Assembly: GCA_964601735.1 (NCBI GenBank)
Contig: CAZROO010000005.1
Span: 1-57,007 of the forward strand
DNA length: 57,007 nucleotides
Direction: 5' to 3'
DNA from: an uncultured Pseudomonadales bacterium
GTDB lineage: Bacteria > Pseudomonadota > Alphaproteobacteria > UBA2136 > UBA6156
Positions 6,874 through 23,511 of the stretch are shown piece by piece. The position numbers and the translations under genes were made by a program. The first letter of the stretch is position 1; each line of letters starts with the position of its first letter. Under the pieces are notes generated by a model, which worked only from the letters and a program-made list of their open reading frames with translations, searched no databases and had not been told where the DNA came from.

Positions 6874-6926
6874 ATGTGTATTCCCTTTTTAAGTAAGCGC
6901 TAGGCTCTCACGCCAACGCCAAATGG

Positions 6927-7859
6927 TCAACGCCGCAAGGCGGCAAAAGCTGTCGGCAAAGGCGCCTCTAAATGGAGAGGCTCGTCCGTCGCCGGCTGCC
7001 TCAGCACCAGCTTCCACGCATGAAGGTACAGCGTATTCGGCGTCTGCAGCGCGCGGGCCGCCTCGCGGGCGTCCGAACCGCCATACTTGTCGTCGCCCAC
7101 CAGCGGCAGGCCAATGTGCGCCATGTGGACGCGAATCTGGTTCATCCGACCGGTCAGCGGCTCGGCTTCAATCAAATGGATGTCCGGGGCAATGCTCTCC
7201 ACTACTTTCCACCGCGTCTGCGCGCTGTCGCCCTGAGGGCTCACCACCGCCATCGGCCCGCGCTTCAATATCGGCGCATCAATCAAGCCTTCTTTACCGG
7301 GCAATTTGCCCATGCACAGCGCCAGATAGGTTTTCTTCACTTCACGGCCCGCAAACTGCGTCATCAGCGCCGCCGCGGTGGTGCGGTTTTTGGCCAGAAC
7401 AATCAGCCCGGTGGTTTCGCGGTCAAGCCGGTGAACCAGTTTCGGCGGCTTATCAGGCCACAGCGCGGTCACAATCCGGTCGAGGCTGCGGGTCTGCCCG
7501 CCACCGGCCTGGGCGGGCAAACCGGCGGGCTTGCTGAATACAAGCAGTTGCTTGTCCTCATACACCAACCCGTCGGTGAACATCTTTTTGTCGGCGTTGG
7601 TGGCCACGTAGTTCTTGCTGTCGCGGCTTTCGGTGCGAGGCCCGCCCGCCAATACGGTTTGCGGCGGCAGCCTCACGGTATCGCCCGCCGCTACGCGCGC
7701 CTCGGCCTTGGCGCGCTTGCCGTTGATGCGCACATCCCCCTTGCGCAGCCACTTCTGAAGCGCCGCATACGGAATCTGCGGCAACACCTTCTTCAGCAAC
7801 CGGTCAAGCCGCTGGCCGTCGTCGGCCTCGCCAATCTTCAGTAACGTCGGCTCAGCCAT
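6927..7859 (-). CDS. rluC: RluA/RluC-family pseudouridine synthase with S4 domain
   Basis: GQRLDR S4 start, KPAG, HRLDRETTG catalytic motif, TGRMNQIRVH, GDDKYG, LYLHA. Confidence 0.93.
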   Translation of the reverse strand: MAEPTLLKIGEADDGQRLDRLLKKVLPQIPYAALQKWLRKGDVRINGKRAKAEARVAAGDTVRLPPQTVLAGGPRTESRDSKNYVATNADKKMFTDGLVYEDKQLLVFSKPAGLPAQAGGGQTRSLDRIVTALWPDKPPKLVHRLDRETTGLIVLAKNRTTAAALMTQFAGREVKKTYLALCMGKLPGKEGLIDAPILKRGPMAVVSPQGDSAQTRWKVVESIAPDIHLIEAEPLTGRMNQIRVHMAHIGLPLVGDDKYGGSDAREAARALQTPNTLYLHAWKLVLRQPATDEPLHLEAPLPTAFAALRR

Positions 7860-8670
7860 GTCGCGTAAGAATCTCCTTCAATCTCGACCACATACCGGTC
7901 GGCTGAGACGCTTCTACCCGCAAACCAGCGCCATCGCCAGCTAAAAAGCCCTTCACATAACTCCAGAATTTCTCATGCTCCAGCATGGGGAAGTGCCCAA
8001 CCCCATGCAGTTCAATGTACCGCGCATCCGGCAAATACCCCGCCAGCTCCCTGCCGCTTTGCGCGCTCACCAGCACGTCGTCGCTGCCATGAATCACCAG
8101 CGCCGGCACGTTCAGCTTGCGTATCCAGCGCTGGCTGCTGAACGCCCCGCCCGCGGTCAGGTGCGCCAGGCTCACCGAGCCCGCCGGCAAATGCGCCGTA
8201 CGCTGCTTGATGAACTCACCATACAAATGCGGGTGATGCGTCACAAACCGCTTGCCGAACAGCACTTTCATCCCCTCGAGAGGCTCATGCTCAATCAGTT
8301 GGTTGAACTCCCAAAACCCCATTTTAATCTTCCCCGGCATGGCGGCCACATCGCGCGTGGTACCCGGCTGCCCGGCGCTGGTGCTCACCAGTATCAGCCG
8401 GTTTACCCGGTCGGGAGACATCTGCACCAGCTCCTGCGCTGCAAACCCGCCCATGCTGTGGCCCAGAATGTCCGCCTGCCAGATGTTATGCAAATCCATG
8501 TAGCGCAGCACTTCCCGCGCATAGGCCTTGGGCGTGAACGGCAACGTCAGCGGCAGCATCTTGCCCACCCCCGGCGGATCGAGCCGCACCACCTCAACAT
8601 CCTTCAACTCGCGCGCGCCCTCAAACAGGTACGCTCCGCTATTCACCCCAGGCAGAATAATCAGCTTCAC
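7852..8670 (-). CDS. Alpha/beta hydrolase
   Basis: GHSMGG elbow, HGSDD acid, GVGHF His. Confidence 0.9.
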   Translation of the reverse strand: MKLIILPGVNSGAYLFEGARELKDVEVVRLDPPGVGKMLPLTLPFTPKAYAREVLRYMDLHNIWQADILGHSMGGFAAQELVQMSPDRVNRLILVSTSAGQPGTTRDVAAMPGKIKMGFWEFNQLIEHEPLEGMKVLFGKRFVTHHPHLYGEFIKQRTAHLPAGSVSLAHLTAGGAFSSQRWIRKLNVPALVIHGSDDVLVSAQSGRELAGYLPDARYIELHGVGHFPMLEHEKFWSYVKGFLAGDGAGLRVEASQPTGMWSRLKEILTRHG

Positions 8671-9998
8671 GAATGCCTCTGCAACCGCAATTTAGTAAAA
8701 TAATCGACACGCTTCCTCATCTCGCGCTCAAACCCACGCTCAACAGGGTTGTACAATACAGGCCTGCTTTTCACCTCCACGGGAAAGTAATTCTGCCCGC
8801 TGAAAGCATCCGGCGCATTGTGGTCATAATCATACCCCGCGCCATGCCCCAGCTCCTTCATCAGCTTGGTCGGCGCGTTCACAATGTGCTTCGGCGGCAC
8901 GGTATGCGCGGTCTCTGCGGCAAGCCGTTTGGCTTCGCCGAACGCCACATAAGTCGCATTGCTCTTCGGCGCCAGCGCCATGTAAATCGCAGCCTCGGCC
9001 AGCGCCAAGTCGCCTTCGGGGCTGCCCAGCATCTGGTACGTATCCCGCGCCGCCACTGCCACCATCAAAGCCTGCGGGTCGGCCAAACCCACATCCTCCA
9101 CCGCCATGCGGATGATCCGCCGCGCGACATAAAGCCCATCCTCACCACCATTGAGCATCCGCGCCAGCCAGTACAGCGCTGCATCCGGGTCGCTGCCGCG
9201 CACACTTTTGTGCAGGGCCGAAATCAAATCGTAGTGCCAGTCCCCGGCCCGGTCGTAATGCGCCGAGCGGGCAGGCAACAACCCGCCCACTCCCGCCGCA
9301 TCCAGCAATCCTTGCGGTTTTTTCGAGGCTACCGCCGCCCCCAACGTCTCGATCAGATTCAGCAGATACCGCGCATCACCATGCGCCATGTCCACCAGCG
9401 CCGCACGCGCGTCGTCGTCCAGCGGCAGCGTGCCAACCACTTCCTCGGCATGATGCAGGATATGCCGCAAGCTCCCCGTATCCAGCGCATCCACCACAAC
9501 CACCTGCGCGCGGCTCAGCAACGCACTGGTCAGGGCAAAACTCGGGTTCTCGGTGGTCGCGCCCAGCAAGGTGAACAACCCACTCTCCACATGCGGCAGC
9601 AACACATCCTGCTGCGCGCGGGTAAAGCGGTGAATCTCATCCAAAAACACCACCGTCCGTCGCCCGGCCCCTTGCCGAACCTTCGCCTCCTCCACCACAT
9701 TCCGCACATCACCCACCCCGGCGGTCACGGCAGAAAGAGGCACAAACTCCGCCTCGAACGCCTGCGCATAAAGCCGCGCCAGCGTCGTCTTGCCGCTACC
9801 GGGCGGCCCCCAAAAAATCAGGCTCTGCGGCACATGAGCCGCCACCAAACGTGTAAGAAGCCCCTCCTCGCCTACCAGCGCGGGCTGGCCCACCACTTCA
9901 CTCAAAGTCTGCGGTCGCAGCCGCTCTGCCAGCGGCGGCAATGGAGCCTCCGAACCCAGCGGCAAATCCGGTTCCGTCGCCGCGGGTTTTTTCTTCAT
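8667..9998 (-). CDS. rarA: Replication-associated recombination protein A (AAA+ ATPase)
   Basis: PLAERLRP, GPPGSGKTT, DEIHRF, GATTENP, ISALHKSVRGSDPDAALYWL. Confidence 0.97.
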   Translation of the reverse strand: MKKKPAATEPDLPLGSEAPLPPLAERLRPQTLSEVVGQPALVGEEGLLTRLVAAHVPQSLIFWGPPGSGKTTLARLYAQAFEAEFVPLSAVTAGVGDVRNVVEEAKVRQGAGRRTVVFLDEIHRFTRAQQDVLLPHVESGLFTLLGATTENPSFALTSALLSRAQVVVVDALDTGSLRHILHHAEEVVGTLPLDDDARAALVDMAHGDARYLLNLIETLGAAVASKKPQGLLDAAGVGGLLPARSAHYDRAGDWHYDLISALHKSVRGSDPDAALYWLARMLNGGEDGLYVARRIIRMAVEDVGLADPQALMVAVAARDTYQMLGSPEGDLALAEAAIYMALAPKSNATYVAFGEAKRLAAETAHTVPPKHIVNAPTKLMKELGHGAGYDYDHNAPDAFSGQNYFPVEVKSRPVLYNPVERGFEREMRKRVDYFTKLRLQRHS

Positions 9999-11467
9999 CG
10001 GCTAATCACCAGCTTCTTCACGCTCGGCCCGCGTTGAAAACGCAACTCCCACGTCCGGTGAACCGCATCAAGCAAACCCTGCACGTCGCCCACGCTTTTC
10101 ACCGGCTGCTTATCAATGTTCATCAGCAAGTCCCCGGCCTGGATATCATACTGCCCCGTATTGCCGGTGCTGGTCACCACCACGCCCTGCGTGTTCAGCG
10201 GCCAGCCCAGCTCGGCATTCAGGCTCGGGCTCAACTGCTCCACCATGCTGCCGGAAAGCGGGGTGTACCCCTTCAGTTTGCGCTGCAAACCGGGGTCGCG
10301 CGGCGGCAGGCTGGTCAGGGCAATGCTCACCGTCTGCTGCGCGCCCCCGCGCCAAATCGTCATCGGCACGTTGCGGCCCAGCTTGTCGGCGGCACTCACC
10401 AGCCGGTCGCCCAGTTGCGCAGGGTCGGCTACCGGCTGGCCGTCAAAACTCAAAATTACGTCACCTACTTTCAGCCCCGAGGTCGCCGCCGGGCTGCCGT
10501 CCACCACGTTCTGCACCAGCACGCCGCGCGCCGGCCCCAGGCCCAACCGCTCGGCCAGCGTTTCGCTTACGCTTTCGCCCTCGGCCCCCAGCCACGGGCG
10601 GCGCACGCTGCCAGTGCTTACCAAATCCTTGGCCGCACGGCTCACCAGGTTGGCAGGAATCGCAAAGCTGATGCCCTGGTTGCCGCCGTTCTTGGTGAAA
10701 ATCGCGGTGTTCACGCCCACCAGCGCACCGCTGCTGTCAATCAACGCGCCGCCGCTGTTGCCGGGGTTGATGGCCGCGTCGGTCTGGATGAACTGCCCGT
10801 ACGGGCTCAGCGCCGCCGCGCTGCGGTTCACCGCGCTCACAATCCCCATGGTGGCGCTCTGGCCGATGCCGTAGGGGTTGCCCAGCGCCAGCACCACATC
10901 GCCCACCTGCATGTTGTCGCTGTTGCCGAACCGAATCGCCGGCAACCGAACCCCGGCAGGCAGCGCCAGCTTCAGCACCGCCAAATCCAAACGCTCGTCG
11001 CCGCGTACCCCGGTCACCTTGAATTCGCGCCCGTCGCCCAGCGCCACGGTCACGTCCACCGCATCCTCAATCACGTGCAGGTTGGTCACCACCACGCCGG
11101 TCGGGTCAATCACCACCCCGCTTCCCAGGCTTTTTTCAATCTTCTCGCGCACCGGCGCATTCTGGCCCTGCAACAGCTTGTCACGCACCGCATCGCTGTA
11201 GCCCTGCTTGCTGGCGGCTACTTTCTTGCTGGTATAAATGCTCACCACGCTTGGCATGGCCGCCCGCACCGCATCATGGAAACTCAACCGCACACCCGCC
11301 CCATCGCGCACCGGCACGGTCTCGGCAAAGCTAACCGGCGATAATAGAATCACTGTCATGCTAACGAAGGTCAGCATCCACGATAAACACGCGCACCCTT
11401 GCGCGCTCAAAATCTTTAATCCTGTTTGGGAGTGTTTTTGCTTCATTCTTATGTTTATCGCCATCAC
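9995..11467 (-). CDS. HtrA/DegP-DegQ periplasmic serine endoprotease with two PDZ domains (real start possibly the ATG at 11377)
   Basis: Catalytic triad TNLHV / DLAVL / QTDAAINPGNSGG; PDZ RPWLG. Confidence 0.95.
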   Translation of the reverse strand: MMAINIRMKQKHSQTGLKILSAQGCACLSWMLTFVSMTVILLSPVSFAETVPVRDGAGVRLSFHDAVRAAMPSVVSIYTSKKVAASKQGYSDAVRDKLLQGQNAPVREKIEKSLGSGVVIDPTGVVVTNLHVIEDAVDVTVALGDGREFKVTGVRGDERLDLAVLKLALPAGVRLPAIRFGNSDNMQVGDVVLALGNPYGIGQSATMGIVSAVNRSAAALSPYGQFIQTDAAINPGNSGGALIDSSGALVGVNTAIFTKNGGNQGISFAIPANLVSRAAKDLVSTGSVRRPWLGAEGESVSETLAERLGLGPARGVLVQNVVDGSPAATSGLKVGDVILSFDGQPVADPAQLGDRLVSAADKLGRNVPMTIWRGGAQQTVSIALTSLPPRDPGLQRKLKGYTPLSGSMVEQLSPSLNAELGWPLNTQGVVVTSTGNTGQYDIQAGDLLMNIDKQPVKSVGDVQGLLDAVHRTWELRFQRGPSVKKLVISR

Positions 11468-11468
11468 T

Positions 11469-12077
11469 CTAAAATCCTAATGCCTTTTTGGCGAGGGGAA
11501 CAGTCACCGCCCGTTTCTCCTCCAAACTCAACCGGTCAAGCTTGGCCACCAGCGTGCGCAACGCCGGCACGCTGCGCTCGGCCCGCGCCAGAATAAAATT
11601 AATAACCTCGGGGCTCAACTCCAGTTGCCGTTCCGCCGCCCATTTGGCCGCCACCTGCGCCAGTTCGTCGTCGCTCGGCGGCAATACTTCCACCGCCTGC
11701 CCGGCGCTCAAGCGGCTGCGCACATCCGGCAGCAATCCTCCCAGTTCCACCACCGGCTGGCGGCTTGCCACAACCAGTGCGCCACTTTTGCCCTGGTTGT
11801 TCAGCCAATGGAACAACTGCTCCTGCCCCACCGCATCCACCTTGTCCAAATCGTCGACAGCCAAAAAATTACCCTCACCAACCCTGGCGCGCCAGATGTT
11901 GAGCAAATGCGTCTTGCCGCTTCCGGCCTCGCCCCACAAACACAAAATCCCGCGCTCGAAATTTTCCAGCAGTTCACGCGCCGCCGCGCTCCCCGCAGTG
12001 GGGAAAAAACTTTCAGCCGATAAATCCTCCCGAAAAGGAAAATTCAAAACCATCTGCGCCATGGCGCCTTTATACAC
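11469..12077 (-). CDS. hdaA: DnaA-regulatory inactivator HdaA-like protein
   Basis: N-terminal QMVLNF clamp-binding motif, GEAGSGKTHLL, DVRSRL, RAERS. Confidence 0.85.
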   Translation of the reverse strand: MYKGAMAQMVLNFPFREDLSAESFFPTAGSAAARELLENFERGILCLWGEAGSGKTHLLNIWRARVGEGNFLAVDDLDKVDAVGQEQLFHWLNNQGKSGALVVASRQPVVELGGLLPDVRSRLSAGQAVEVLPPSDDELAQVAAKWAAERQLELSPEVINFILARAERSVPALRTLVAKLDRLSLEEKRAVTVPLAKKALGF

Positions 12078-12100
12078 GAAGAAACCGCAAAAATCCTAAC

Positions 12101-12706
12101 CTAAAACCTCACTTCAACCGCTCCATCCGCCCCCATCTCCGCAGTGAGTCCCTTGGCATGGAGTTGAGCCGCCAGCGTATCGGCATTGGCGTTGGGCACG
12201 GCCATTTCGGCACCGTCCACGGTAAGACGGGTATAGGTAGCGGCCAGGCCCATCGTTCGCAGCGCCTGCAACACCCGGTCCTGGGCACCGGCGTTACCGG
12301 TCACGCGTACCACGGCCTTGCTGGCCATGTCGGCGTGCGGCGGCTGAATCATCGTCGTCGGGCTGGTCTGTACGGTGGTCGAGGTCATCCCGTCAGCCGG
12401 GTTTGCCGCAGGGTTCGCATCCAGCCCCGTCGGCGACGTCACCAGCGAGGCCGAAGTCACCAGCGCGGTGGTCGCCGAAATGGTCGCGCTCACCGTCGCC
12501 AGCACTTGGTCAATATGGTCGGTGCCGACAGGCGGTGCAGCCGGGTTCACCACCACGGTCGGGGTCACATCCAGGCCCGTTTCCACACCCGCTCCCACCA
12601 CCTCACCGCCGGGCAGCACCGGTGCGACATCTTCGCTCGTCATAGGAATGGGCTGGGCCCAAACAGCGACAGGAATAAAACAGAAACCGACAGCAAAGCG
12701 ACGCAT
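12101..12706 (-). CDS. Exported hypothetical protein: long T/P/V-rich linker plus small C-terminal alpha/beta domain (possible DUF2066 remnant)
   Basis: Signal-peptide-like N-terminus; position between ndk and hdaA. Confidence 0.6.
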   Translation of the reverse strand: MRRFAVGFCFIPVAVWAQPIPMTSEDVAPVLPGGEVVGAGVETGLDVTPTVVVNPAAPPVGTDHIDQVLATVSATISATTALVTSASLVTSPTGLDANPAANPADGMTSTTVQTSPTTMIQPPHADMASKAVVRVTGNAGAQDRVLQALRTMGLAATYTRLTVDGAEMAVPNANADTLAAQLHAKGLTAEMGADGAVEVRF

Positions 12707-12742
12707 AAACTACCTCTCCGCACCACCCTACCCCGCGCAAAA

Positions 12743-12769
12743 AAAGGCGCCAAGTGACTTGGCGCCTTT
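12743..12769 (-). terminator. Terminator after ndk
   Basis: AAAGGCGCCAAG-tga-CTTGGCGCCTTT. Confidence 0.85.
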
Positions 12770-12790
12770 ATCAACAACTGCAGAGAAAAA

Positions 12791-13333
12791 TTAGCCGACC
12801 AGCTCTGCGGCCTTGAAAAACGTAGCAATTTCACGCTTCGCAGCTTGCGGGCTGTCGCTGCCGTGAACCGCGTTGGCGGAAAGGTCGGTGCAAGGCAGCG
12901 CAAAGTCGTAGCGCAGCGTGCCGGGCTCGGCCTTCATCGGGTTGGTGGCACCCATCAGCACACGGTTTTTGATAATCGCATCATCACCTTCCAGCACCAG
13001 CACCACGCACGGGCCGCTGGTCATGAAGCTCACCAGCTCGCCAAAAAACGGGCGAGCCTTGTGCTCGGCGTAAAAAGCCTTGGCCTGCTTGTCGCTGAAG
13101 TGCATCATCTTCATGCCCGCAATCTTGAGGCCGGCATTCTCAAAACGGGCCAGAATACGGCCAATCACATGCTTGCCCACGGCATCGGGCTTGATGATGC
13201 TCAGGGTGCGTTCCTTCGCCTTGGGGGCAGCCTTTACAGCCTTCTTGGCAGGTTTGGCGGCCACCTTCTTGGCGGCAGGTTTGCTAGCCTTTGCAGGCTT
13301 TTTCACAACTTTTTTGACAGGCTTTTTGGCCAT
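12791..13333 (-). CDS. ndk: Nucleoside diphosphate kinase with a 40-aa Lys/Ala/Pro-rich N-terminal extension
   Basis: [36 protein letters not shown] (catalytic His). Confidence 0.97.
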
Positions 13334-13396
13334 GGGGATATCTGCTTCCGTTACAATGGCACGGTTTTTGGCGTTTTAACGTTGAACTGTCAAGGG

Positions 13397-13846
13397 TTAA
13401 GTCGCCTTTTTCCATCCCCGCTCAGTTTGCTGAAAGAAACTCACACTCCACCCCAGCCCTGCCAACATGCCTCGCCGCCTGACGGCGCTCTCGGCCGCCG
13501 CTGCATGGTACACATAAACCAGGCTTTCCGCCGGAATATCAAAAGCCTCCTCGGCCCCGGCCACCAGCACCGCCAACCGCCCTTCCAGGTGTTCCTGCGC
13601 TTGTCCCACCCCGGCCAAAAGCACGGGCTGGCGCACTTCATCACCCTCGCCAACCCGCCCATGCGGCAAAAACCCCGCCCCGGTGGGCCACAAACGCTCG
13701 TCCAACCGGCTCACGGCATTGTCGGCACTCACCAGCAGCACCCGCTTGCCGTCGTTCACCAGCTTGTCGAGAAACCCCGGCAAAAACGCGTCCACATCAG
13801 CGGGCAAATTCCCCGCCAGTTGGTAAAACCGCGCCTCCCCCACCAT
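13397..13846 (-). CDS. holC: DNA polymerase III chi subunit
   Basis: RFYQL, LDERLW, FLPHG, QPVLL, C-terminal GW; downstream of pepA. Confidence 0.85.
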   Translation of the reverse strand: MVGEARFYQLAGNLPADVDAFLPGFLDKLVNDGKRVLLVSADNAVSRLDERLWPTGAGFLPHGRVGEGDEVRQPVLLAGVGQAQEHLEGRLAVLVAGAEEAFDIPAESLVYVYHAAAAESAVRRRGMLAGLGWSVSFFQQTERGWKKAT

Positions 13847-13850
13847 AAAA

Positions 13851-15407
13851 TTAGGCTGCCTTGCGCGGACGCCCGCGTTTGCCGGTGCGAATCACCCTCG
13901 CAGCAGGTGCCGCCTCGGCAAAGTTGGATTCCAGCAGATGCGTCAACATCCGCACGCCCCAGCCGGTCGCGCCGTTCAACTCGCTGTGCGCCCCCGGCAC
14001 GCCCTTTTCGCTGTTGGCAGTCCCGGCAATGTCCAGGTGCGCCCACGAGGTGTTGCCGACGAATTTTTGCAGAAACTCAGCTGCACTCATCGCCCCGCCA
14101 TAACGCGACCCCACCGTATAGGTGTCCGCCACCGCACTCGGTGTCAGATAGCCCTTTTCAATCGGCAAACGCCACAGCCGCTCGCCGGTGTACTCACCCG
14201 CACTCTTAATCAACCGCGCCAGGTGCTCATCGTTGCCGAACAGCCCCGCATAAGCCCCGCCCAAGCTGATCATGCACGCCCCGGTCAGCGTCGCCAGGTT
14301 AATGAGCCGCGCCGGCTCGTGCTTCTCGATGGTGTAGGCAATGGCATCGGCCAGCACCAGCCGCCCTTCGGCATCGGTATTGCCGATCTCCACCATCAAT
14401 CCTTTGTAGCTCTTGTAAATGCTGTCGGTCACAAACGGGATGCCGCTCACCATATTCATCGCCAGCGTCAACACGCCCACCACGTTCACGCGGCTCTTGC
14501 GGCTGGCGATACTCTTCATCGTCCCCAGCACGGCTCCCGCGCCGCTCATATCGAACTTCATCCCCTTCTGCGCACCCGAAAGCTTCAGGTCATACCCGCC
14601 GGTGTCGTAGCATATCCCTTTCCCCACCAGCGCGGTCTTTTCTGCACCTTTGCCCGCGCCGTTATATTCCATCAGCACCAGACGCGGCTGGTTCTCGGGG
14701 CTGGCATTGCAGCCCACCGCCAGAATCAGGTTCAGCCCCAGCTTCTTCATTTCCTTTTCGTCGATGACGGTTACCTTCACGCCCAGCTTTTCCAGCTTCA
14801 ACGCCTCGTCGGCCATGAACTGCGGAGTAGCCACATTGGGTGGCGTGTTGCCGCAGTTGCGGGTCAGGTCAACGCCGCCCAGCATCGATTCCATCAGCTT
14901 TTCACCGGCGGTGAGCTTGTTGGCCGCCGTGCCGCCCACCAATACAGTCAGCTTTTGCAACTTCACCTGCTGATGCGGCTTGATGTTGGTCTTGAAATCC
15001 TCAAACCGGTACAGCGACATCTGCACACCTTCGGCCAACGCACTCCCGGCATCCACCTGCGCGGCAACGTCACCCACATCGCCCAGTGCAATTGTCACCT
15101 CGCGCCAGCCCTGCGCGTCAATCTGCCGTGCAATGGCCATCCCGGCCTTCCACCAGTCGCGGCGCTCCATCGCCTTCAGCTTACCCACGCCGTGCACCAG
15201 CACGTTGTCGCCACCAATCACGGTACGGAAAAATTCCCCCGCCCCGCCGGTAAAGCGCCCGGCACGGAAACTTTTCTTCACAGCGTTTTTGCGCGCCTTG
15301 TTCAAAACCTCGCCGCCACCCAGCAGTTTTTGGCCGTTTTCGGCAAACACCACGATATTTTTCTTCATGGCCAACGGCGTAATACGGCCAAATTTGAGCG
15401 CGAACAT
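13851..15407 (-). CDS. pepA: Leucyl aminopeptidase (M17) with C-terminal AT-hook-like tail
   Basis: LVGKGICYDTGG, MKFDMSGA, NTDAEGRLVLAD, ATLTGA, WAHLDIAG; start set at the ATG after a GGAG RBS. Confidence 0.96.
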   Translation of the reverse strand: MFALKFGRITPLAMKKNIVVFAENGQKLLGGGEVLNKARKNAVKKSFRAGRFTGGAGEFFRTVIGGDNVLVHGVGKLKAMERRDWWKAGMAIARQIDAQGWREVTIALGDVGDVAAQVDAGSALAEGVQMSLYRFEDFKTNIKPHQQVKLQKLTVLVGGTAANKLTAGEKLMESMLGGVDLTRNCGNTPPNVATPQFMADEALKLEKLGVKVTVIDEKEMKKLGLNLILAVGCNASPENQPRLVLMEYNGAGKGAEKTALVGKGICYDTGGYDLKLSGAQKGMKFDMSGAGAVLGTMKSIASRKSRVNVVGVLTLAMNMVSGIPFVTDSIYKSYKGLMVEIGNTDAEGRLVLADAIAYTIEKHEPARLINLATLTGACMISLGGAYAGLFGNDEHLARLIKSAGEYTGERLWRLPIEKGYLTPSAVADTYTVGSRYGGAMSAAEFLQKFVGNTSWAHLDIAGTANSEKGVPGAHSELNGATGWGVRMLTHLLESNFAEAAPAARVIRTGKRGRPRKAA

Positions 15408-15511
15408 GATTTTCTCCACAATTATTGAATAATTATTTTCGTGGGGCATAAAATGCCACACCCTTGCCGCCGGCATCAACCCCTATTAGGGTGCGCCCCA
15501 GAAGAACTTAA

Positions 15512-16600
15512 ATGAAAACGCTGCCCAGATACTTTGCGAGCGAGTTGATTAAACCGACGCTCCTCGCCCTCGCCGTCCTTCTCGGCATCATCTGGCTGCA
15601 ACAATCCATGATGTTCCTCGATTTCGTCATCAACAAGGGCCTCGGCCTCGGCACGTTCCTGCGCCTCACCGTCATGCTGGTGCCGCGCCTTCTCTTAATA
15701 GTGTTGCCGCTCGCGCTGTTCGCGGGTGTTGCCGCCGCCTCGCGCCGCTGGGTCGACGACAATGAGTACCTCATCCTCGCCGCCACCGGCTGGCCGCGCT
15801 GGCGGCTGGCGGTACCCGCCGCCATGTGGGGCCTGCTGGGCGTCGTACTGGCCTACAGTGTAGCCTTCTGGGTGCTGCCCCCCGCCATCACCAGTTTCAA
15901 GGAGCTTCAAAACCGTCTCCGCACCATGGATGGTGAAATCCTGCTTGAAGAAGGCGCCTTCAACCAGTTAGGCGACAACCTGATGGTCTATTTAAAAGAG
16001 CGCGTCACGCCCACCCGCCTCACCGGCCTGCTGGTGCACGATACCCGCGAACCCGCCAAAACCGTCACCTGGTTCGCCAAGGGTGGCGAAGTGGTGATGG
16101 GCCCGGACGGTTTTCCGCGCCTGGTACTCACCGATGGATTACGCCAGGAAAGCGGCAAAAACGGCGTCAACATGCTGCAATTCTCCGCCCATACGCTCGA
16201 CCTCAAGCAGCAGCTCAACCACCCCTCCAATGCCCGCCAGCGCGACATGGAAGAATATTACATCCCCGAACTGCTCAGCCAAATCCGCAACGGCGAATCC
16301 GCGCACGACAGGCAGGACGCCATCACCGAACTCGCCTGCCGCCTTACGTGGCCACTGGCCGCGTTGCCGTTATGCCTGCTCGGCGTCAGCATCATGCTGC
16401 GCCGGGCCGATCGCCGCGCCAACACCACCCGCCGCCTCGCCCTCGCCGGACTCGTCGCCGTGATTTACATCGCCCTGCTGCCGGCAGGGCAAGGGCTGCT
16501 GCAGGGCGGCAACGAAGCCGGCATGGCCCTGCTGGTGCTGTTGCCGCTTATCACAACCACCCTGGCCTTCTGGATGCTGCGGGAGCCGACCTATGTCTAA
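15512..16600 (+). CDS. lptF: LPS export ABC permease LptF
   Basis: Three N-terminal TMs, DNEYLILAATG motif, periplasmic beta-jellyroll, three C-terminal TMs; paired with lptG. Confidence 0.9.
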   Translation: MKTLPRYFASELIKPTLLALAVLLGIIWLQQSMMFLDFVINKGLGLGTFLRLTVMLVPRLLLIVLPLALFAGVAAASRRWVDDNEYLILAATGWPRWRLAVPAAMWGLLGVVLAYSVAFWVLPPAITSFKELQNRLRTMDGEILLEEGAFNQLGDNLMVYLKERVTPTRLTGLLVHDTREPAKTVTWFAKGGEVVMGPDGFPRLVLTDGLRQESGKNGVNMLQFSAHTLDLKQQLNHPSNARQRDMEEYYIPELLSQIRNGESAHDRQDAITELACRLTWPLAALPLCLLGVSIMLRRADRRANTTRRLALAGLVAVIYIALLPAGQGLLQGGNEAGMALLVLLPLITTTLAFWMLREPTYV

Positions 16601-17720
16601 AGCCATCCTCCCCAGCCTGAGCGCCCCGCGCCGCGCCGGCCCCACCATCGGATTCTATCTCGCCCGCCGTTTTGCCTGGACGCTGTTCTTCGTCATGCTC
16701 GGCCTCACCGCGCTTATATACGTCATCGACACGCTTGAAATGCTGCGCCGCCTCGGCAACCACAACATCGGGGCTTCCGTCGCGCTTAAAATGAGCCTGT
16801 TCCGCCTGCCCGACTTGGCGCTGACCCTGCTGCCCTTCGTCGTCCTGCTGGCCACGCTCGCGCTGCTCCGGCAACTTACCCGCAATTCCGAAATCATTAT
16901 CCTCCGCGCCGCAGGCCTGCCTACCTGGCGCCTGCTCAACGGCCCGGTGACGGTCATCCTGCTCACCGGCATGCTGGCGCTGTTCATCGGCAATCCGCTG
17001 GCGGCCACCATGCTCAAGCGGTACGAAAGCTGGCAGGCCGAAAACCTGCCCGGCAGCACCAAGGGGGTGGTCACGGCGGGGGGCACCATCTGGCTCAAGC
17101 AACGGCAGGAAGACCACGATTTCTTCATCACCGCGCGCGAGGCCCAAAGCAATGGCGCCTTACTCAAGGACGGCACCGTCTTCCTCTTCAGCCCCAAGGG
17201 CGATTTCCAGGCCCGACTGGACGCCGATACCATCACGCTGGAACCCGGTCTCTGGCACCTTAACAACACCACGCTGCTGCAACCCAACCAGCCGGTAAAG
17301 CACGAAGATTCCGTCACCATCCCCACCGACCTGACCCCGCAGGTCATCCAGAGCAGCTTCCACCCCGCGGGCACGCTCACCTTATGGGAACTCAACCGCT
17401 TCATCGATATCCTGCGCGAAACCGGCTTCCCCAGTAGCGCGCACGAAATGCAATTCCAGCGCCTGCTCGCCCTGCCCGCGCTGCTCTTCGCCATGTTCTG
17501 GCTGGCGGTGCCGTGGGGCCTGCGCAACGTACGCGGCGGCGGCGTCTGGCAACTGGCGGCAGCGGGCGTCGGCATGGGTTTCGGCTTTTATTTGCTCACC
17601 AACCTGTTCACTACTTTCGGCCTGGCCGGGCGCCTCAACGTGGTGCTGGCCGCCTGGGCCCCGGTGCTGGTGGCGGGCATGGCCGCCGCCGCCCTGCTCC
17701 TCGCCTGGCGCGAAGAATAG
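16593..17720 (+). CDS. lptG: LPS export ABC permease LptG
   Basis: SEIIILRAAG, GTIWLKQ, LAAWAP; overlaps the lptF stop. Confidence 0.9.
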   Translation: MSKAILPSLSAPRRAGPTIGFYLARRFAWTLFFVMLGLTALIYVIDTLEMLRRLGNHNIGASVALKMSLFRLPDLALTLLPFVVLLATLALLRQLTRNSEIIILRAAGLPTWRLLNGPVTVILLTGMLALFIGNPLAATMLKRYESWQAENLPGSTKGVVTAGGTIWLKQRQEDHDFFITAREAQSNGALLKDGTVFLFSPKGDFQARLDADTITLEPGLWHLNNTTLLQPNQPVKHEDSVTIPTDLTPQVIQSSFHPAGTLTLWELNRFIDILRETGFPSSAHEMQFQRLLALPALLFAMFWLAVPWGLRNVRGGGVWQLAAAGVGMGFGFYLLTNLFTTFGLAGRLNVVLAAWAPVLVAGMAAAALLLAWREE

Positions 17721-17795
17721 GGTCAAAGGACAATAGCTCACAGGCAAAAAATTTTATCGCCTGCAATCCTGTCACCCTGTTAGCCTGTAATCCTT
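17718..17795. repeat. Octamer arrays between lptG and lptD
   Basis: Degenerate left arm from the lptG stop (TAGGGTCA-AAGGACAA..CAGGC); right arm GCCTGCAA-TCCTGTCA-CCCTGTTA-GCCTGTAA-TCCTT. Confidence 0.65.
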
Positions 17796-17804
17796 GCTAG
17801 GCGC

Positions 17805-20039
17805 TTGACGCCACCCCATTCCACCATCCATTGTCGGCCCTGGAAAAAGAGCCCGCCCCTGTACCGCATTTTGGCCCTGTTAGCGTTATTCGCCATCCCC
17901 GCGGCCTGGGCCCAAACCACAGCGCCTGTTTCCGGCACCCAAGCCAAGTCTCCCCAACCCTTCGACCTCGACGCCGACACGGTAAGCTACGAAAGCTCAC
18001 CCACCCGCATCGTCGCCCGCGGCAACGTGGTGGTCAGCAGCTCCGACGGCCGCCTGCAAACCCCCGAACTCACCTATTATTCCGATACGGGCCGCGTACT
18101 GGCTTCCGGCGGCGTCACCTATACCAACCCCTCCAACCAGGTACTCACCGCCCAAACGCTCGAACTCACCGACAAATTCCGCCAGGGCGCCGCCGACAAG
18201 CTCACCATGTCGGTGCCGCAACTCGGCCAGATTCTCACCGCCCAAACCGCCACCAAACTCAGCCCCACCGAATATCAATTGAACCACGCCACCTACAGCC
18301 CGTGCCGCACCTGCCCGGGCGAAAGCAAACCCTGGTCGGTCAGCGCCCAAACCGTGACGTACGACACCTCCGAAAGCAAGGTCACCTACCGCAACGCCGT
18401 CTTCAAGGTCAAAGACACCCCCATCATGTACCTGCCCTATTTCAGCAACAGCGTAGGCCCCAAACAACCCAAAAGCGGCCTATTGTTACCAACCGTCGGC
18501 CACTCCTCCAATAAAGGCTTCATGGTCGGCGAACGCTATTACATCTGGAACCCGCGCGAAAACGCCGATTACACCATCGGCGACACCTACATGAGCGCGC
18601 GCGGCCATATGCTTGCCGCCGAGCGCCGCCAGATTACCGACTACACGCAAAGTGAATTCCGCGGCAGCTTCATCAACGACCTCGACCAGAACTCCCGCCC
18701 GCGCGGCGATGTCCAGGGTATCTTCCAGCAGGTGCTCCAGCCCGGCCTGCGTGTCGGTTTCAATGCCGAGCGCGCCAGCGACCGCACCTACCTCAACGAA
18801 TACTTCGGCCGCACCGACCCCTATCTCGCCAGCACGCTCTACGGCGAAAGCGGAGCCGAAGACCACTACTACGCCCTCACCGCCACGCAGTTCCAGAACC
18901 TCAGCAGCACCATGCCCAACGGCAGCGCGTCGCAGGCCACCACCGCGCAAGTGCTGCCGCACCTCCAGCTCGAAAAAACCTTCAGCATGGGCGGCCGTGG
19001 CGACACCCTCAACCTCACCGGCGACTCCATCAACCTCATGCGCACCACCGGCACACGCTACCGCCGCATGATCGGCATGGCCGACTACAATAAGCCACTG
19101 CTGTTTGAAGACGGCAGCAAGCTCAACCTCGACGCCACCCTGCGCGGCGACTATTACAACGTCGATGGCCAAAATGGCCCTGGCTCCCAAAACGGCGATA
19201 CCTTCCGCGCCCTGCCGGAAGCCACCGCGCTCTGGAGCAAGCCCTACGTCTCGCCCGGCGGCTATCATACCATCGCGCCTACCGTCATGGGCGCCCTTTC
19301 GCCACGCGGGGGCAACCCTTCCGGTATCCCGAATGAAGACTCCGTCGGCTACGAACTCGACGCCGCAAACCTGTTCGAGCCCAACCGCTACGCCGGGCTC
19401 GACCGGGTCGAAACCGGCCCGCGCGTGGTCTACGGACTCGACAACCGCTGGGGTGATGCCAGCCACACCGACTGGCGCCTGTTCCTCGGCCAGGGCATCC
19501 GTAAATTCAACGACAACCGACTGCCGACCAACAGCGGCGCCGCCACCGCGGTAACCGACTGGATTGCCGCCGCCGAGGCCAACCCCACCAACTGGCTCAA
19601 TTTCCAAAACCAGCTCCGGCTCGATAATTCCGACCTCACCATCCGCCGCGCCGACACCAGCATGCGCATCGGCGAGTACAACAGAACCCGCCTCATCGTC
19701 ACCCACAGCTATCTCGACAACGGCCCCAACGAACTGAGCCTCGACTTCCAGTTACCCATCAACGACAACTGGTCGTTCCTCTCCCAGGCGCGCGAGGACA
19801 TCGCCAACAATACGCTGCTCGAAGGCACCGCCGGCTTCCGCTTCAGGGCTGACTGCTATCAAGTCGACCTGATGGCCAAGCGCAGCGGATACGAAAGTGC
19901 CGACCTCCACCCCAGTACCGACTACATCGTCAACCTCAAGCTGCTCACCTTCAACACCGGTGACGACAACGGCAACATCGGCGTCCTGCCCGGTGCCACC
20001 GATACCCGCAGCAGCCTCGACACCATGCCAAAACTGTAG
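17805..20039 (+). CDS. lptD: LPS assembly outer-membrane protein LptD
   Basis: LDADTVSY, ATYSPCRTC, IMYLPYF, SDRTYL, NEDS, DRVETGPR, ADCY. Confidence 0.93.
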   Translation: MTPPHSTIHCRPWKKSPPLYRILALLALFAIPAAWAQTTAPVSGTQAKSPQPFDLDADTVSYESSPTRIVARGNVVVSSSDGRLQTPELTYYSDTGRVLASGGVTYTNPSNQVLTAQTLELTDKFRQGAADKLTMSVPQLGQILTAQTATKLSPTEYQLNHATYSPCRTCPGESKPWSVSAQTVTYDTSESKVTYRNAVFKVKDTPIMYLPYFSNSVGPKQPKSGLLLPTVGHSSNKGFMVGERYYIWNPRENADYTIGDTYMSARGHMLAAERRQITDYTQSEFRGSFINDLDQNSRPRGDVQGIFQQVLQPGLRVGFNAERASDRTYLNEYFGRTDPYLASTLYGESGAEDHYYALTATQFQNLSSTMPNGSASQATTAQVLPHLQLEKTFSMGGRGDTLNLTGDSINLMRTTGTRYRRMIGMADYNKPLLFEDGSKLNLDATLRGDYYNVDGQNGPGSQNGDTFRALPEATALWSKPYVSPGGYHTIAPTVMGALSPRGGNPSGIPNEDSVGYELDAANLFEPNRYAGLDRVETGPRVVYGLDNRWGDASHTDWRLFLGQGIRKFNDNRLPTNSGAATAVTDWIAAAEANPTNWLNFQNQLRLDNSDLTIRRADTSMRIGEYNRTRLIVTHSYLDNGPNELSLDFQLPINDNWSFLSQAREDIANNTLLEGTAGFRFRADCYQVDLMAKRSGYESADLHPSTDYIVNLKLLTFNTGDDNGNIGVLPGATDTRSSLDTMPKL

Positions 20040-20053
20040 CCTGGCAGGCAGCA

Positions 20054-20078
20054 AAAAGGCCCCTCAACAGGGCCTTTT
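20054..20078. terminator. Bidirectional terminator
   Basis: AAAAGGCCC...GGGCCTTTT between convergent genes. Confidence 0.8.
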
Positions 20079-20089
20079 CAATATCGAAA

Positions 20090-20587
20090 TCAGGCCAGCA
20101 AACGTTGGCGCAGGTTATGGCACAAGGCATCCAACGTCGGAGCAATGCCACCCTGGTTCCCAAAACAATATTCCACCTGAAGGTTCACTATCGAACCGAT
20201 ATTATCGGCACTGAGCCTGAAATCCCCCCGGTAGCCATACAGCTTTTTACCTTTGGCATACGCATAGCCCACTTCGCAGGCCGTGCCGCTATCAACATCC
20301 GTACCGTCAAGCACCGCTACAACGGCTTGGGATGAATCAATCGCCTCAAAGTTGGTTTTGGCAATCTGCCGGTTCAACGTCTGCCACCGGTTTCGCTGTT
20401 CCGGGCCAAACGGCAAGGCATTTGCTTCTTCAACCGGTTTTTCATCGGTGAGGGTCCAGGGGTCCAGTAAATCCAGGCCTAGTTGACGCAACCGGGGTAA
20501 AAGAACGCCACTGTAGTAGTGGCGCCCGGCTTCACTAAATCCCAGAGGGCTGGCAACATATACTGTAGGCTTTAAAGCTCCGCTCAT
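20090..20587 (-). CDS. Nucleoside 2-deoxyribosyltransferase / N-glycosidase family protein
   Basis: VYVASPLGF, D..VVAVLDGTDVDSGTACEVGYAYAKGK, GDFR, NLQV. Confidence 0.88.
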   Translation of the reverse strand: MSGALKPTVYVASPLGFSEAGRHYYSGVLLPRLRQLGLDLLDPWTLTDEKPVEEANALPFGPEQRNRWQTLNRQIAKTNFEAIDSSQAVVAVLDGTDVDSGTACEVGYAYAKGKKLYGYRGDFRLSADNIGSIVNLQVEYCFGNQGGIAPTLDALCHNLRQRLLA

Positions 20588-20651
20588 CGGCGCTCCTTCA
20601 AAAGAGATGAGATCCCCTTCTCATACTCAATCAAATTGCCTTCCGGCAAGC

Positions 20652-21476
20652 TTAATTCACATCAATGACAAACGGGACAGTCACAACCTGCCCCTTATGC
20701 TTCACCTGCAGAAACAGCTTATGCATGCCACGCACTTGAGGCATCAGTTGAAAATTCAACACCGGCCCGCCGCGGTCATCCGGGCTTTCCGGTTCGGCCC
20801 CGCTCGGGTGCGCATGCATGATGGTCTCCAGGTTCCTGTCAAAACCCGCCAGGTGGGCATAAGACCCCATAATCGGCTCCAGGCTTGTCACCGGCAACCC
20901 ATCGTCGCTGTAGGTGTTCAAAATTGCCAGCGTGCCCTCACCCGCGTGCGGCGGCATCGCCAGGGTCAGGGTAAAACGCATACCGTCACCGCTGCCGGTC
21001 AGCACTTGCTCCTTGCCCAGCGCCGTCGGTTGCGGAACCACCCCACCCAGTTGCAACGGCACAAACTGGTCGTTGTCCTCCTTGGGTTTCACTTCCAGCC
21101 AAAGCTTGTAAGCTGCCCTTTGCGGCGTAAAACCCACCACCCATTCGCCGTCGCTCCGGCCCGGCACGGGGTGGAGGTGATGATAATCGGCCATGCCGCC
21201 ATCAATCGCAAACAGGTGCATCGGCTCGTCGTGGATAATCTCCACGTCCGCCGGACGTAATGGGCGGCCATATTTATCCTTTAATACCAGCGTCAGGCTC
21301 ACCGGCCTGCCGGGCACCAGCTCGCCGCCGTTGCTCACCGTGGCCCGCACCGTCGGACTGGCCGCCATACTCATCCCGGTCATACCCACCATGCCATGAC
21401 CGCCATCAGCCCATACCGCCAGCGGAGCCACCGGCAGCACAAGGCCCAGCGCTCCCAACATCCATAACCCACGCAT
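20652..21476 (-). CDS. Exported protein with duplicated His-motif domain (putative Cu/heavy-metal binding)
   Basis: Signal peptide, H/M-rich linker, two similar halves HDEPMHL..YHHLHP and MGSYAHL..IMHAHP. Confidence 0.7.
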   Translation of the reverse strand: MRGLWMLGALGLVLPVAPLAVWADGGHGMVGMTGMSMAASPTVRATVSNGGELVPGRPVSLTLVLKDKYGRPLRPADVEIIHDEPMHLFAIDGGMADYHHLHPVPGRSDGEWVVGFTPQRAAYKLWLEVKPKEDNDQFVPLQLGGVVPQPTALGKEQVLTGSGDGMRFTLTLAMPPHAGEGTLAILNTYSDDGLPVTSLEPIMGSYAHLAGFDRNLETIMHAHPSGAEPESPDDRGGPVLNFQLMPQVRGMHKLFLQVKHKGQVVTVPFVIDVN

Positions 21477-21492
21477 GGCGGCACCCTTCCTG

Positions 21493-21819
21493 TTAAAAAC
21501 TGCTGGTCGATATCAGAATTACCTGCTCGCCGGCCTTTACCAGCGGCAAGTGGCGGCGAATTTCCTCGTCCACGTAATCCTCGTCCAGCCGCTGGTGCGA
21601 ATCCGGCCGCAACCGCACCACGTTGCGCTGCAACTGGTCAATGTAGGCGTGCAAGTCGGTATTTTCGGCCTGTAACTGCTGTACCTGAACAGTCAGATGC
21701 TTCCACGTCACCACCCCGCGCTCGCCGTTAATCAGTTGCAACGTGGTGTACAGCAGCAGCAACCCCGCCGAAATCGGCAGCAGCAGCCTGTACATCCGGG
21801 GGGTGAAGCGAATCCGCAC
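21493..21819 (-). CDS. ftsB: Septum formation initiator FtsB/DivIC
   Basis: TM, then NGERG, coiled coil, LDEDYVDEEIR..L..GE. Confidence 0.85.
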   Translation of the reverse strand: MRIRFTPRMYRLLLPISAGLLLLYTTLQLINGERGVVTWKHLTVQVQQLQAENTDLHAYIDQLQRNVVRLRPDSHQRLDEDYVDEEIRRHLPLVKAGEQVILISTSSF

Positions 21820-22671
21820 CTACAGTCCTTTCCGCCAGGCATCAAGGTCTTTGAGAGGCGTCAGCAATGCTTCCAGCTCATCCAGCGGCACCTGGGTTTC
21901 CTTGTCGCTAATCGCTTTGCTGGGGTCAGGATGGGTCTCGATGAACAACCCGGCCACCCCCACCGCCACGGCGGCCCGCAGCAGCGGCGGCAGGTCGGCA
22001 CGATTGCCGCTGCTGGCGCCACCGGCCCCGCTGGGTTTCATCACGCTGTGGGTGGCATCGAACACCACCGGGTAGCCGCTCCCGGCCATTACCGGAAAAC
22101 CACGAAAATCCACCACCAGGTTATGGTAGCCGAAGGTCACCCCGCGCTCGGTCAGAATCACGTTGTCGGTGCCCGCACTGGCAATCTTGGCGGCGGCGGG
22201 CAACATGTCCTCGGGGGCCATGAACTGCCCCTTTTTCAGGTTCACGGCTTTACTGGCCCCCTTCACCGCGGTGCCGCAGGCCAGCAACAGGTCGGTCTGG
22301 CGGGCCAGAAAGGCCGGGATCTGCACCACATCCACCACCTCGGCCACCGGCCCCACCTGGGCCAGGTCATGAACATCGGTAACCACAGGTAACCCCATGT
22401 TTTTACGAATTTCTTCCAGCAATTTCAGGCCTTCGTCCAGCCCCATGCCCCGGCCACCGCCCAAACTGGTCCGGTTTGCTTTATCAAAGCTACCTTTGTA
22501 CACCACGCCCCAGCCAAGCTTGCGACCAAGTTGCGACACCTTTTCAGCGGTCCGTAGCGTAATGTCCCGGCCCTCCAGGGCACAGGTTCCGGCCATGAGG
22601 CTTATAGGCAAATTATTGGAAAAAATGACTTTTTCAATCTTATCGCCACCAATAGTCACCGTCTTCTGCAT
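21820..22671 (-). CDS. kdsA: KDO-8-phosphate synthase
   Basis: KGSFDKANRTS, TDVH, QIPAFLARQTDLL, KKGQF, ERG, FDATHSV, FIETHPDP; start set at MQKTVTIGG. Confidence 0.97.
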   Translation of the reverse strand: MQKTVTIGGDKIEKVIFSNNLPISLMAGTCALEGRDITLRTAEKVSQLGRKLGWGVVYKGSFDKANRTSLGGGRGMGLDEGLKLLEEIRKNMGLPVVTDVHDLAQVGPVAEVVDVVQIPAFLARQTDLLLACGTAVKGASKAVNLKKGQFMAPEDMLPAAAKIASAGTDNVILTERGVTFGYHNLVVDFRGFPVMAGSGYPVVFDATHSVMKPSGAGGASSGNRADLPPLLRAAVAVGVAGLFIETHPDPSKAISDKETQVPLDELEALLTPLKDLDAWRKGL

Positions 22672-22695
22672 AGCCCCGAAATTAACCTCAAACCC

Positions 22696-22723
22696 CTTGA
22701 AATACCACCCCACCAACCCATTT
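22696..22723 (+). promoter_or_regulatory. Sigma32 (RpoH)-like promoter 1
   Basis: CTTGAA-N15-CCCATTT. Confidence 0.55.
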
Positions 22724-22759
22724 TTAAAGCAAGTCACCGCCATTCATAGGAGTTTAAAA

Positions 22760-23380
22760 ATGGCCATCGACCAATCTACAATCTCTTTAAGTGCCGACGC
22801 CCAAACCAAAAAGGCGGCATATGGCGAAATCTACTGCTCCACTCAAGGTACCTGCCCCAACGGCTGGCAAATCAAGCTCGCCGAAAACTATCCGCTGGCT
22901 CAATCCACCACCTCTCCCTCGGCAGATACTCTCACTGCCCAGGAAAAAGTGCCGGACATGCAGGCGGTGGCACCGGTTCCCGAAGCGGAACTGAAGCACA
23001 ACGGCGAACGCTCCGGTATTCACGGCACGGCAATAATCGCCGCAGTCACCGGGCAGCACATTGCCGACCCCTCACCGCAAATGAGGGCCGCGCACCGTAA
23101 GGCCCGGCTCAACACGCTTCGCAAAAAGCACGTCGCCGCCAAGCCTCACCACCACGAGCACCATCACCAGGTGGTCACCCGAGCCAACGGCCACCACAAA
23201 CGGAACGCCAAAGCAGCCCACCACTACCGGACTGCCAAGGCTCTACCTTCCCACCATAAAACACTCCAGGTCGCCATACCGGCACCCGAGCGCATGGTAG
23301 AAACGGCACCGCCGCCACGAGATCCCTTCCGTGAATTCCTCATGGCCTGTGCCCGCTTCGCCAGAGCGATCCGCACCTAA
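22760..23380 (+). CDS. Orphan protein with His/Lys/Arg-rich segment (206 aa)
   Basis: AGGAG RBS before the ATG at 22760, own terminator; the longer ORF start overlaps kdsA and was rejected. Confidence 0.7.
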   Translation: MAIDQSTISLSADAQTKKAAYGEIYCSTQGTCPNGWQIKLAENYPLAQSTTSPSADTLTAQEKVPDMQAVAPVPEAELKHNGERSGIHGTAIIAAVTGQHIADPSPQMRAAHRKARLNTLRKKHVAAKPHHHEHHHQVVTRANGHHKRNAKAAHHYRTAKALPSHHKTLQVAIPAPERMVETAPPPRDPFREFLMACARFARAIRT

Positions 23381-23396
23381 TCTTCGTCATAAACTT

Positions 23397-23417
23397 GGCC
23401 CTTCCTCTGGAAGGGCC
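23397..23417 (+). terminator. Intrinsic terminator
   Basis: GGCCCTTCC-tct-GGAAGGGCC followed by ATTTT. Confidence 0.8.
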
Positions 23418-23431
23418 ATTTTCTTTACCGC

Positions 23432-23459
23432 CTTGAAAATCAGCCATTTCGCCCCATAT
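23432..23459 (+). promoter_or_regulatory. Sigma32 (RpoH)-like promoter 2
   Basis: CTTGAA-N14-CCCCATAT, a full match to the classical sigma32 consensus. Confidence 0.7.
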
Positions 23460-23511
23460 TTAAGTTAAACCCGTGCCATCCGGCACATCCCTTTTTTGAT
23501 ATGAGGTCCAC

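Follow-up and report, generated by a model that had tools for sequence, protein, structure and literature searches.

The closest described counterparts of the protein considered here are the PepA proteins (XerB, CarP) of Escherichia coli and Vibrio, M17 aminopeptidases that form hexamers, wrap DNA and act in Xer/cer recombination, in carAB repression, and in nhaB and global regulation (PMC2655662, PMC13492116, PMC9674212). In V. cholerae, chromatin immunoprecipitation sequencing located PepA at 178 sites (PMC9674212), and nhaB is repressed (PMC9674212, PMC13492116). E. coli PepA binds DNA via its N-terminal domain, with residues such as R164, and via a C-terminal groove. Its chain stops where the M17 fold stops, and no DNA-binding motif can be recognised in it; its mode of DNA binding has for this reason been unclear for about 30 years. 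Here, we analyzed the pepA gene (13851..15407, minus strand) in a stretch of 57,007 nucleotides (the window) from an uncultured alphaproteobacterium (contig CAZROO010000005.1 of assembly GCA_964601735.1; UBA2136, UBA6156 in GTDB). In contrast to E. coli PepA, the encoded protein adds a predicted disordered tail with an AT-hook to the M17 fold. What appears to be new is that an enzyme known to moonlight as a DNA-binding protein has acquired a known DNA-binding motif. We lean, at slightly better than even, toward the tail acting as a multivalent minor-groove anchor that reinforces the DNA-architectural role of PepA.

The open reading frame (ORF) of 542 residues (13851..15479, minus) is open upstream to a TTG at 15479. 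The ATG at 15407 is probably the true start (MFALKF..., 518 residues plus stop), since homologues begin there with the consensus MFxL, a GGAG lies six nt upstream, and ORF residues 1-22 have a predicted local distance difference test score (pLDDT) below 50. The last 25 residues of the ORF, S518-A542 (13854-13928, minus), represent an extension, as the Pfam M17 domain ends at 512 and solved PepA structures align only to residue 518. They comprise a neutral, Ala/Pro-rich linker, SNFAEAAPAARVIRTG (ORF residues 518-533; 13881..13928, minus), that lies past the last predicted helix and drifts in sequence among relatives; the hook K-R-G-R-P-R-K (ORF residues 534-540, or 510-516 in the 518-residue numbering; 13860..13880, minus); and two alanines, followed by the TAA stop codon (13851..13859, minus; the stop at 13853-13851). 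The protein thus ends in ...GWGVRMLTHLLESNFAEAAPAARVIRTGKRGRPRKAA. In the AlphaFold2 model (mean pLDDT 83, predicted template modelling score 0.86) the last helix spans residues 509-519, no secondary structure is predicted past 519, and pLDDT is below 50 for residues 525-542, consistent with a disordered tail.

An AT-hook is defined by a GRP core with basic K/R flanks that binds the minor groove (PMC11354804). The window motif fits this definition, having the GRP core, an arginine before it and K/R on both sides. When the isolated tail was compared with Pfam, AT_hook (PF02178) was the sole family match (17.1 bits, E 0.0047, for a gathering cut-off of 17.4 bits), and tails of relatives scored 17.4 bits with two hooks and 22.8 bits with three. 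Given the amino-acid composition of a rough call of 51 window genes (16,509 residues), the chance expectation is 0.29 for RGRP and 4e-5 for KRGRPRK; each occurs once. The claim of the initial annotation that PepA carries a C-terminal AT-hook, KRGRPRK, therefore stands, with a canonical core at 13860-13880, past the M17 fold. The interval it gave, 13851-13900, correctly takes in the stop and the last 15-16 codons (RVIRTGKRGRPRKAA); its quotation of the C-terminus dropped the residues ESNF between ...THLL and AEAAP, a trivial slip.

The enzyme to which the hook is attached agrees with the E. coli and V. cholerae proteins in having both M17 domains, in its catalytic residues and in its lptG-lptF<>pepA-holC neighbourhood. 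The N-terminal domain (ORF residues 43-164; 14988..15353, minus; PF02789, E 1.6e-13) is the DNA-binding domain in E. coli PepA (PMC2655662, PMC13492116), and the catalytic domain covers ORF residues 205-512 (13944..14867, minus; PF00883, E 1.7e-101). Besides these domains and AT_hook, Pfam detected no family in the window PepA, and no homology to H-NS, Lsr2, MvaT or MucR. The best solved structural relative is 8pz0 (E 3.9e-81), with 3h8e and 1gyt as further homologues of known structure. Residues K287, D292, K299, D310, D369, E371 and R373 are invariant in an alignment of 28 PepA sequences and align to K270, D275, K282, D293, D352, E354 and R356 of the E. coli protein (1gyt), which are metal-binding and catalytic. 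Source annotations of the homologues read "leucyl aminopeptidase" only.

Downstream of pepA, holC (13397..13846, minus; Pfam DNA_pol3_chi), for the chi subunit of DNA polymerase III, starts 4 nt past the pepA stop. Upstream and divergent lies lptF (15512..16600, plus), with a counterpart in the related locus L081 and LptF_LptG and LptD Pfam matches, followed by lptG and lptD. The E. coli-like order lptF-lptG(-lptD)<>pepA-holC is present in the window and in the relatives L081, L082 and L222-L224; pepA followed by holC is kept in relatives, often with a gene for an M42-family peptidase inserted between them. Both M17 domains, the conserved catalytic residues and this gene order identify the gene, at the level of sequence, as a genuine PepA orthologue and the positional orthologue of E. 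coli pepA, in agreement with its initial assignment. As neither the catalytic residues nor the lptF<>pepA-holC synteny is disturbed, the protein is probably a catalytically competent M17 leucyl aminopeptidase, an active enzyme to which a hook was added.

The tail is not peculiar to the window. For the initial annotation, a tail not conserved in relatives would have counted against its reading; the tail is strongly conserved there, and that objection falls. Among the 120 best PepA homologues in a collection of 5.8 billion proteins, about 55, down to 39% identity, have a C-terminal tail that contains one to three RGRP cores; the others stop at the M17 fold. In a rough neighbour-joining tree of the core domain, hook-bearing PepAs form one contiguous block of 53 leaves, with three further carriers (P0106, P0075 and P0070) outside it. 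Tails within the block have one hook in 16 cases, two in 30 and three in 6, and a single member has RRGRKRR only; orthologues with two and three hooks include P0004 and P0010; the window PepA belongs to a one-hook subgroup with its three closest relatives (P0001-P0003, 66-100% identity). The terminal hook reads KRGRGRPRK in 29 of the 53 members (consensus KRGRGRPRKxA), a 9-mer that we take to match the first hook of the eukaryotic protein HMGA1, and the proximal hook reads K[KR]RGRPA[KR]. The median spacing of hook cores is 20 residues, and the first GRP follows the end of the enzyme core by a median of 16 residues.

Constraint is concentrated on the hook itself. In an alignment of 28 homologues G536 and R537 do not vary, and R535 and P538 reach at least 90% conservation. 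In a comparison of seven pepA loci, all differences between hook codons are synonymous (AAA/AAG, CGC/CGT/CGG, GGG/GGA/GGC/GGT, CCG/CCA), and the residues flanking the hook vary freely. We located the hook clade by a query with the single protein and by a DNA pattern for a clade-specific core signature. The signature occurs in 8 species among 185,579 GTDB representatives, all of them metagenome-assembled genomes named Alphaproteobacteria or Proteobacteria bacterium, two under evidently wrong species names; the tail is present in all eight, with one core degenerate (GTPGRPAAK). Genomes of the clade include GCA_027485835.1, DATAJX01, WGMN01 and VAFM01. None of 80 ordinary PepAs from Rhizobiales, Rhodospirillales, Pelagibacterales, Sneathiella, Pseudomonas and other groups has it. 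A profile-based GTDB locus search, which serves as a negative control, returned among the matches listed only distant PepAs (at most 46% identity), none of them tailed. Together, these comparisons indicate that the tail is under purifying selection throughout the clade.

This conservation bears directly on the possibility that the tail is a functionless low-complexity extension, or an artefact of annotation or assembly, in G+C-rich DNA. CGN, GGN and CCN codons are indeed common at about 60% G+C, and the reverse strand also reads RGRPR. The antisense of the hook DNA encodes M-R-G-R-P-R-L within a spurious ORF of 80 residues (13861..14103, plus) that lies wholly inside pepA, a reading that arises because these same codons are nearly self-complementary. 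A neutral origin is nevertheless hard to reconcile with a hook that is conserved to 39% core identity with synonymous codon turnover between drifting flanks, with a chance expectation of 4e-5, with a tail encoded by independent assemblies (P0001 comprises 10 member sequences), and with a stop codon that in the window, and likewise in L081, precedes holC by 4 nt. We regard this explanation as effectively refuted and its remaining probability as minimal.

The company that the hook keeps elsewhere in bacteria points to DNA. When GTDB genomes were scanned for DNA that encodes KRGRGRPRK, at least 120 matches emerged, and the 120 listed all lie in frame within an ORF. Among these, 57 are small actinobacterial proteins of the form ...VWGGEVFVDG..KRGRGRPRK..AA with a Pfam WhiB match, which are of the WhiB7 type. 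These are the commonest carriers of the 9-mer among the matches listed, about 95-125 residues long (loci L106-L221, e.g. L108 7309..7680). Other carriers among these matches are RpoD N-termini, tyrosine integrases, DnaA, and NYN/OST-HTH, WYL and helix-turn-helix proteins; in the pooled set Pfam assigned six members to sigma-70 and four to phage integrase, besides DnaA, NYN/OST-HTH and WYL. In long ORFs of Verrucomicrobia/Akkermansia (L151, L172, L177) and shorter ones of Burkholderiales (L107, L139, L141) the hooks lie near the N-terminus. One listed match is a PepA (L211), and M17 is the sole primarily metabolic enzyme family among them. That the hook sits mostly on proteins of DNA transactions supports a DNA function for the PepA tail.

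A search of 1.84 billion representatives with a profile of the tail alone gave 1,465 proteins at E up to 0.001, the best 150 of which are many-hook proteins that outrank two-hook PepAs. Among 93 shorter matches, Pfam detected linker histones, helix-turn-helix proteins, zf-PARP, resolvase and DksA; a few non-chromatin proteins were also present, from NifU_N (three members), Ppx-GppA (one member, with several hooks) and DUF892. Three proteins of 650-960 residues (P0242, P0246, P0248) have, by eye, an IscU/NifU-like start followed by 8-11 AT-hook repeats. Judged from these matches, fusions of AT-hooks to enzymes exist elsewhere and are rare, which makes the PepA tail unusual rather than unique.

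Among described proteins, actinobacterial WhiB7 offers the nearest parallel: the same KRGRGRPRK hook, usually with an ...AA end, right at the C-terminal end of a folded domain that has no DNA-reading function of its own. The C-terminal hook of WhiB7 is experimentally established, and structures of AT-hooks with DNA exist (PMC11354804). Unlike PepA, WhiB7 belongs to the small Fe-S WhiB-like transcription factors, associates with sigma A and has one hook per molecule; it is neither an enzyme nor homologous to PepA. HMGA1 and HMGA2 resemble the clade's tails in having two or three hooks with a GRP core and basic flanks, about 20 residues apart on a disordered chain (PMC11354804). This likeness is confined to the motif, as the HMGA proteins are eukaryotic, about 100 residues long and fully disordered, with an acidic tail and without a catalytic domain. 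CarD of Myxococcus xanthus, H-NS, Lsr2 and MvaT read the A/T minor groove with R-G-R-type motifs and gain avidity by oligomerizing, as we propose for PepA (PMC8156234, PMC4466236, PMC8476142). In contrast to PepA, the hooks of CarD follow a domain that binds RNA polymerase, H-NS, Lsr2 and MvaT use a non-canonical Q/RGR motif inside a folded domain, and none of the four is a metabolic enzyme.

In the explanation that we favour, a short, disordered C-terminal hook tail was acquired by the M17 enzyme within a single uncultured clade of Alphaproteobacteria. By analogy with other M17 enzymes, which are hexamers, the window PepA presumably forms one too. It would then expose 6 hooks, against 12-18 in relatives, with a linker of about 16 residues, a span of about 50 Å, for each. 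We propose that the hooks enter the minor groove at A/T tracts, of which loci with 52-62% G+C such as these have few, and hexameric display would yield high-avidity, multivalent attachment to DNA with some sequence preference. Such an arrangement would be a sensible design, because single hooks bind weakly and flanks and multivalency matter. The hooks would thereby strengthen or replace the weak, motif-less DNA binding by which PepA wraps DNA. DNA binding by the window PepA, its A/T preference and its biological targets are in this scheme what we infer from motif and family.

A possible target lies close at hand. Just upstream of the pepA start is a 20-mer of 95% A+T, AAAATAATTATTCAATAATT (15420..15439, minus), a speculative candidate for hook binding. 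Comparable 20-mers of 70-95% A+T occur at -35 to -10 of pepA in six related loci (85-95% in L081, L082 and L222-L224, whose loci have 57-62% G+C, and 70% in L211). Autoregulation of pepA through this patch was considered and found to be a weak proposition, as A+T-rich 5' leaders are generic, and we keep the patch as a candidate target only.

Several observations weigh against an anchoring role. The single hook of the window falls 0.3 bits short of the Pfam AT_hook cut-off, and short single AT-hooks have low affinity on their own (PMC11354804). Among the 25 annotated genes of the window, which holds about 26 more unannotated ones, there were none for Xer, ArgR or carAB, nor for any of the partners (ArgR/ArcA or PyrH/IHF) with which PepA of the E. 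coli type acts at cer/psi or carAB-type sites. R164, which is crucial for DNA binding by E. coli PepA (PMC13492116), is an alanine in the window protein (PTR164RELT versus TAANKLT), in a gapped alignment of the linker that makes the correspondence tentative. The E. coli mode of DNA binding can for this reason not simply be assumed here, and the hooks may stand in for contacts of the E. coli type instead of supplementing them. Finally, AT-hooks can bind structured RNA (PMC11354804).

The last point leads to a different view of the tail, as a ligand of another polyanion or partner (structured RNA, polyphosphate, anionic membrane lipid or a protein), or as a C-terminal signal for degradation or localization. 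The AT-hooks of HMGA1, SWI/SNF and Tip5 bind RNA (PMC11354804), and proposals for PepA itself include a function as an RNA-binding chaperone and CRP-mediated sequestration at the membrane (PMC13492116). Other PepA branches (P0057, P0069, P0071, P0095) have poly-Arg or basic C-tails that are not groove-specific; their occurrence in side branches suggests that a cationic PepA C-terminus was selected repeatedly. A terminal alanine after the hook is strongly preferred, in 39 of 55 hook-bearing PepAs as in 51 of the 57 WhiB7-like proteins listed, and might recall C-terminal degrons of the Ala-Ala type. What selection retains in the clade is however the exact R-G-R-P core, glycine and proline included, and not charge alone, and the same 9-mer on WhiB7 is an established binder of the DNA minor groove. 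We consider a partner other than DNA, or a degradation or localization signal, fairly improbable, and continue to favour the minor-groove anchor.

It could also be that the tail binds DNA to a more general end, as a tether that parks an abundant hexamer on A/T-rich DNA for bulk compaction, silencing or localization, without specific PepA complexes in recombination or transcription and as part of a wider habit of basic tails. The number of hooks per hexamer, 6-18, would suit such a nucleoid-associated protein, as would the apparent lack of conservation of E. coli R164. Moreover, two other enzymes encoded close to pepA have basic tails. The initial annotation had pointed to a tail on the nucleoside diphosphate kinase Ndk about 0.5 kb away, and this tail is real: ndk (12791..13333, minus) encodes a K/A/P-rich N-terminal extension of 40 residues (about 13214-13333), with the Pfam NDK domain starting at residue 41, and its counterpart in L081 (8075..8620) shares it. 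The M42-family peptidase gene stands between pepA and holC in most clade genomes (e.g. L082 7646..8719). The window lacks it, and holC comes next after pepA there. In at least five sister genomes (L225, L226, L228, L229, L230) the M42 peptidase has a basic, K/A/P/T-rich N-terminal extension of 15-35 residues, e.g. MATKIKAKPAAKTTVKASAKTPAKEAKK. Histone-H1-like tails rich in K/A/P are known from, e.g., AlgP, Hc1 and actinobacterial HU. The Ndk and M42-peptidase tails resemble these in composition; as a sequence class they are distinct from the AT-hook, and the tail of PepA does not belong among them. Between ndk and an hda-like gene (11469..12077) lies a gene for a 201-residue protein (12101..12706, minus) with a signal-peptide-like N-terminus, an Ala/Thr/Pro-rich middle and no Pfam match, whose position is kept in L081 (8644..9498, 284 residues).

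The distribution of these features speaks against a shared habit. Of the 120 homologues closest to the window Ndk, 3 share its tail (P0121-P0123, 181 residues), all of them from immediate relatives of the window. The remaining homologues have 138-172 residues and no K/A/P extension in the N-termini checked, and Ndk from other hook-PepA genomes has 138-149 residues and is tailless. Judged from these sequences, the Ndk tail arose recently and has a narrow spread, in contrast to the PepA hook, which is old and present throughout the clade, and we reject co-evolution of the two. No second AT-hook or RGRP protein was found among the 51 window genes and about 105 genes of six related loci, so that AT-hooks are not a proteome-wide habit in the roughly 150 genes sampled; a GRPR in AcpS (28317..28655) is internal and looks like chance. 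In addition, the hook is found mostly on sequence- or site-directed DNA proteins among the GTDB matches listed. A general tether of this kind therefore seems unlikely to us.

The initial annotation had gone further and suggested a lineage that recruits metabolic oligomers as nucleoid proteins. Basic tails on three oligomeric enzymes in one small neighbourhood are suggestive of such a strategy, and the M42-peptidase tail of the sister genomes adds to the case. The narrow spread of the Ndk tail, the missing second AT-hook and the preference of the hook for DNA-transaction proteins leave the suggestion weakly supported. In its boldest form, the PepA of this clade, with its 6-18 hooks, would be a major chromosome-architectural protein, an enzyme-cored bacterial HMGA that bridges or wraps rare A/T-rich tracts and perhaps silences A/T-rich foreign DNA, and Ndk and the M42 peptidase would have been drawn independently to the nucleoid by their basic tails; we rate this quite improbable.

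The window as a whole is a stretch of chromosomal housekeeping genes, including an autotransporter gene, asmA, rarA, degP, hda, lptFGD, ftsB, kdsA, msrA, recO, era, rnc, lepB and acpS. Its genes are mostly on the minus strand, and the GC skew is persistently negative (-0.10 to -0.29) over 1..54000. Rfam and tRNA scans of the window returned only a tRNA-Pro (4061-4137), and hence no rRNA on which to base a taxonomy.

A full-text search for literature linking the AT-hook to PepA, leucyl aminopeptidase, aminopeptidases, moonlighting enzymes or Alphaproteobacteria found nothing relevant, and domain databases may flag the motif automatically. Searching for AT-hooks in nucleoid-associated proteins retrieved only the known AT-hook-like silencers, and a 2025 review of bacterial M17 enzymes mentions neither tail nor AT-hook.

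A hook under clear purifying selection on PepA provides independent evolutionary support for a role of this enzyme on DNA. It suggests that the nucleic-acid role of PepA extends well beyond the Gammaproteobacteria and is important enough to be reinforced. A metabolic enzyme would thereby join the short list of bacterial proteins with a canonical AT-hook, a list in which WhiB7, sigma factors, integrases and DnaA otherwise predominate. The tail also offers an experimental handle for separating the DNA function of PepA from its peptidase function. If the basic tails on Ndk and the M42 peptidase do belong to the same picture, the clade would have a lineage-specific way to build nucleoid proteins from oligomeric enzymes.

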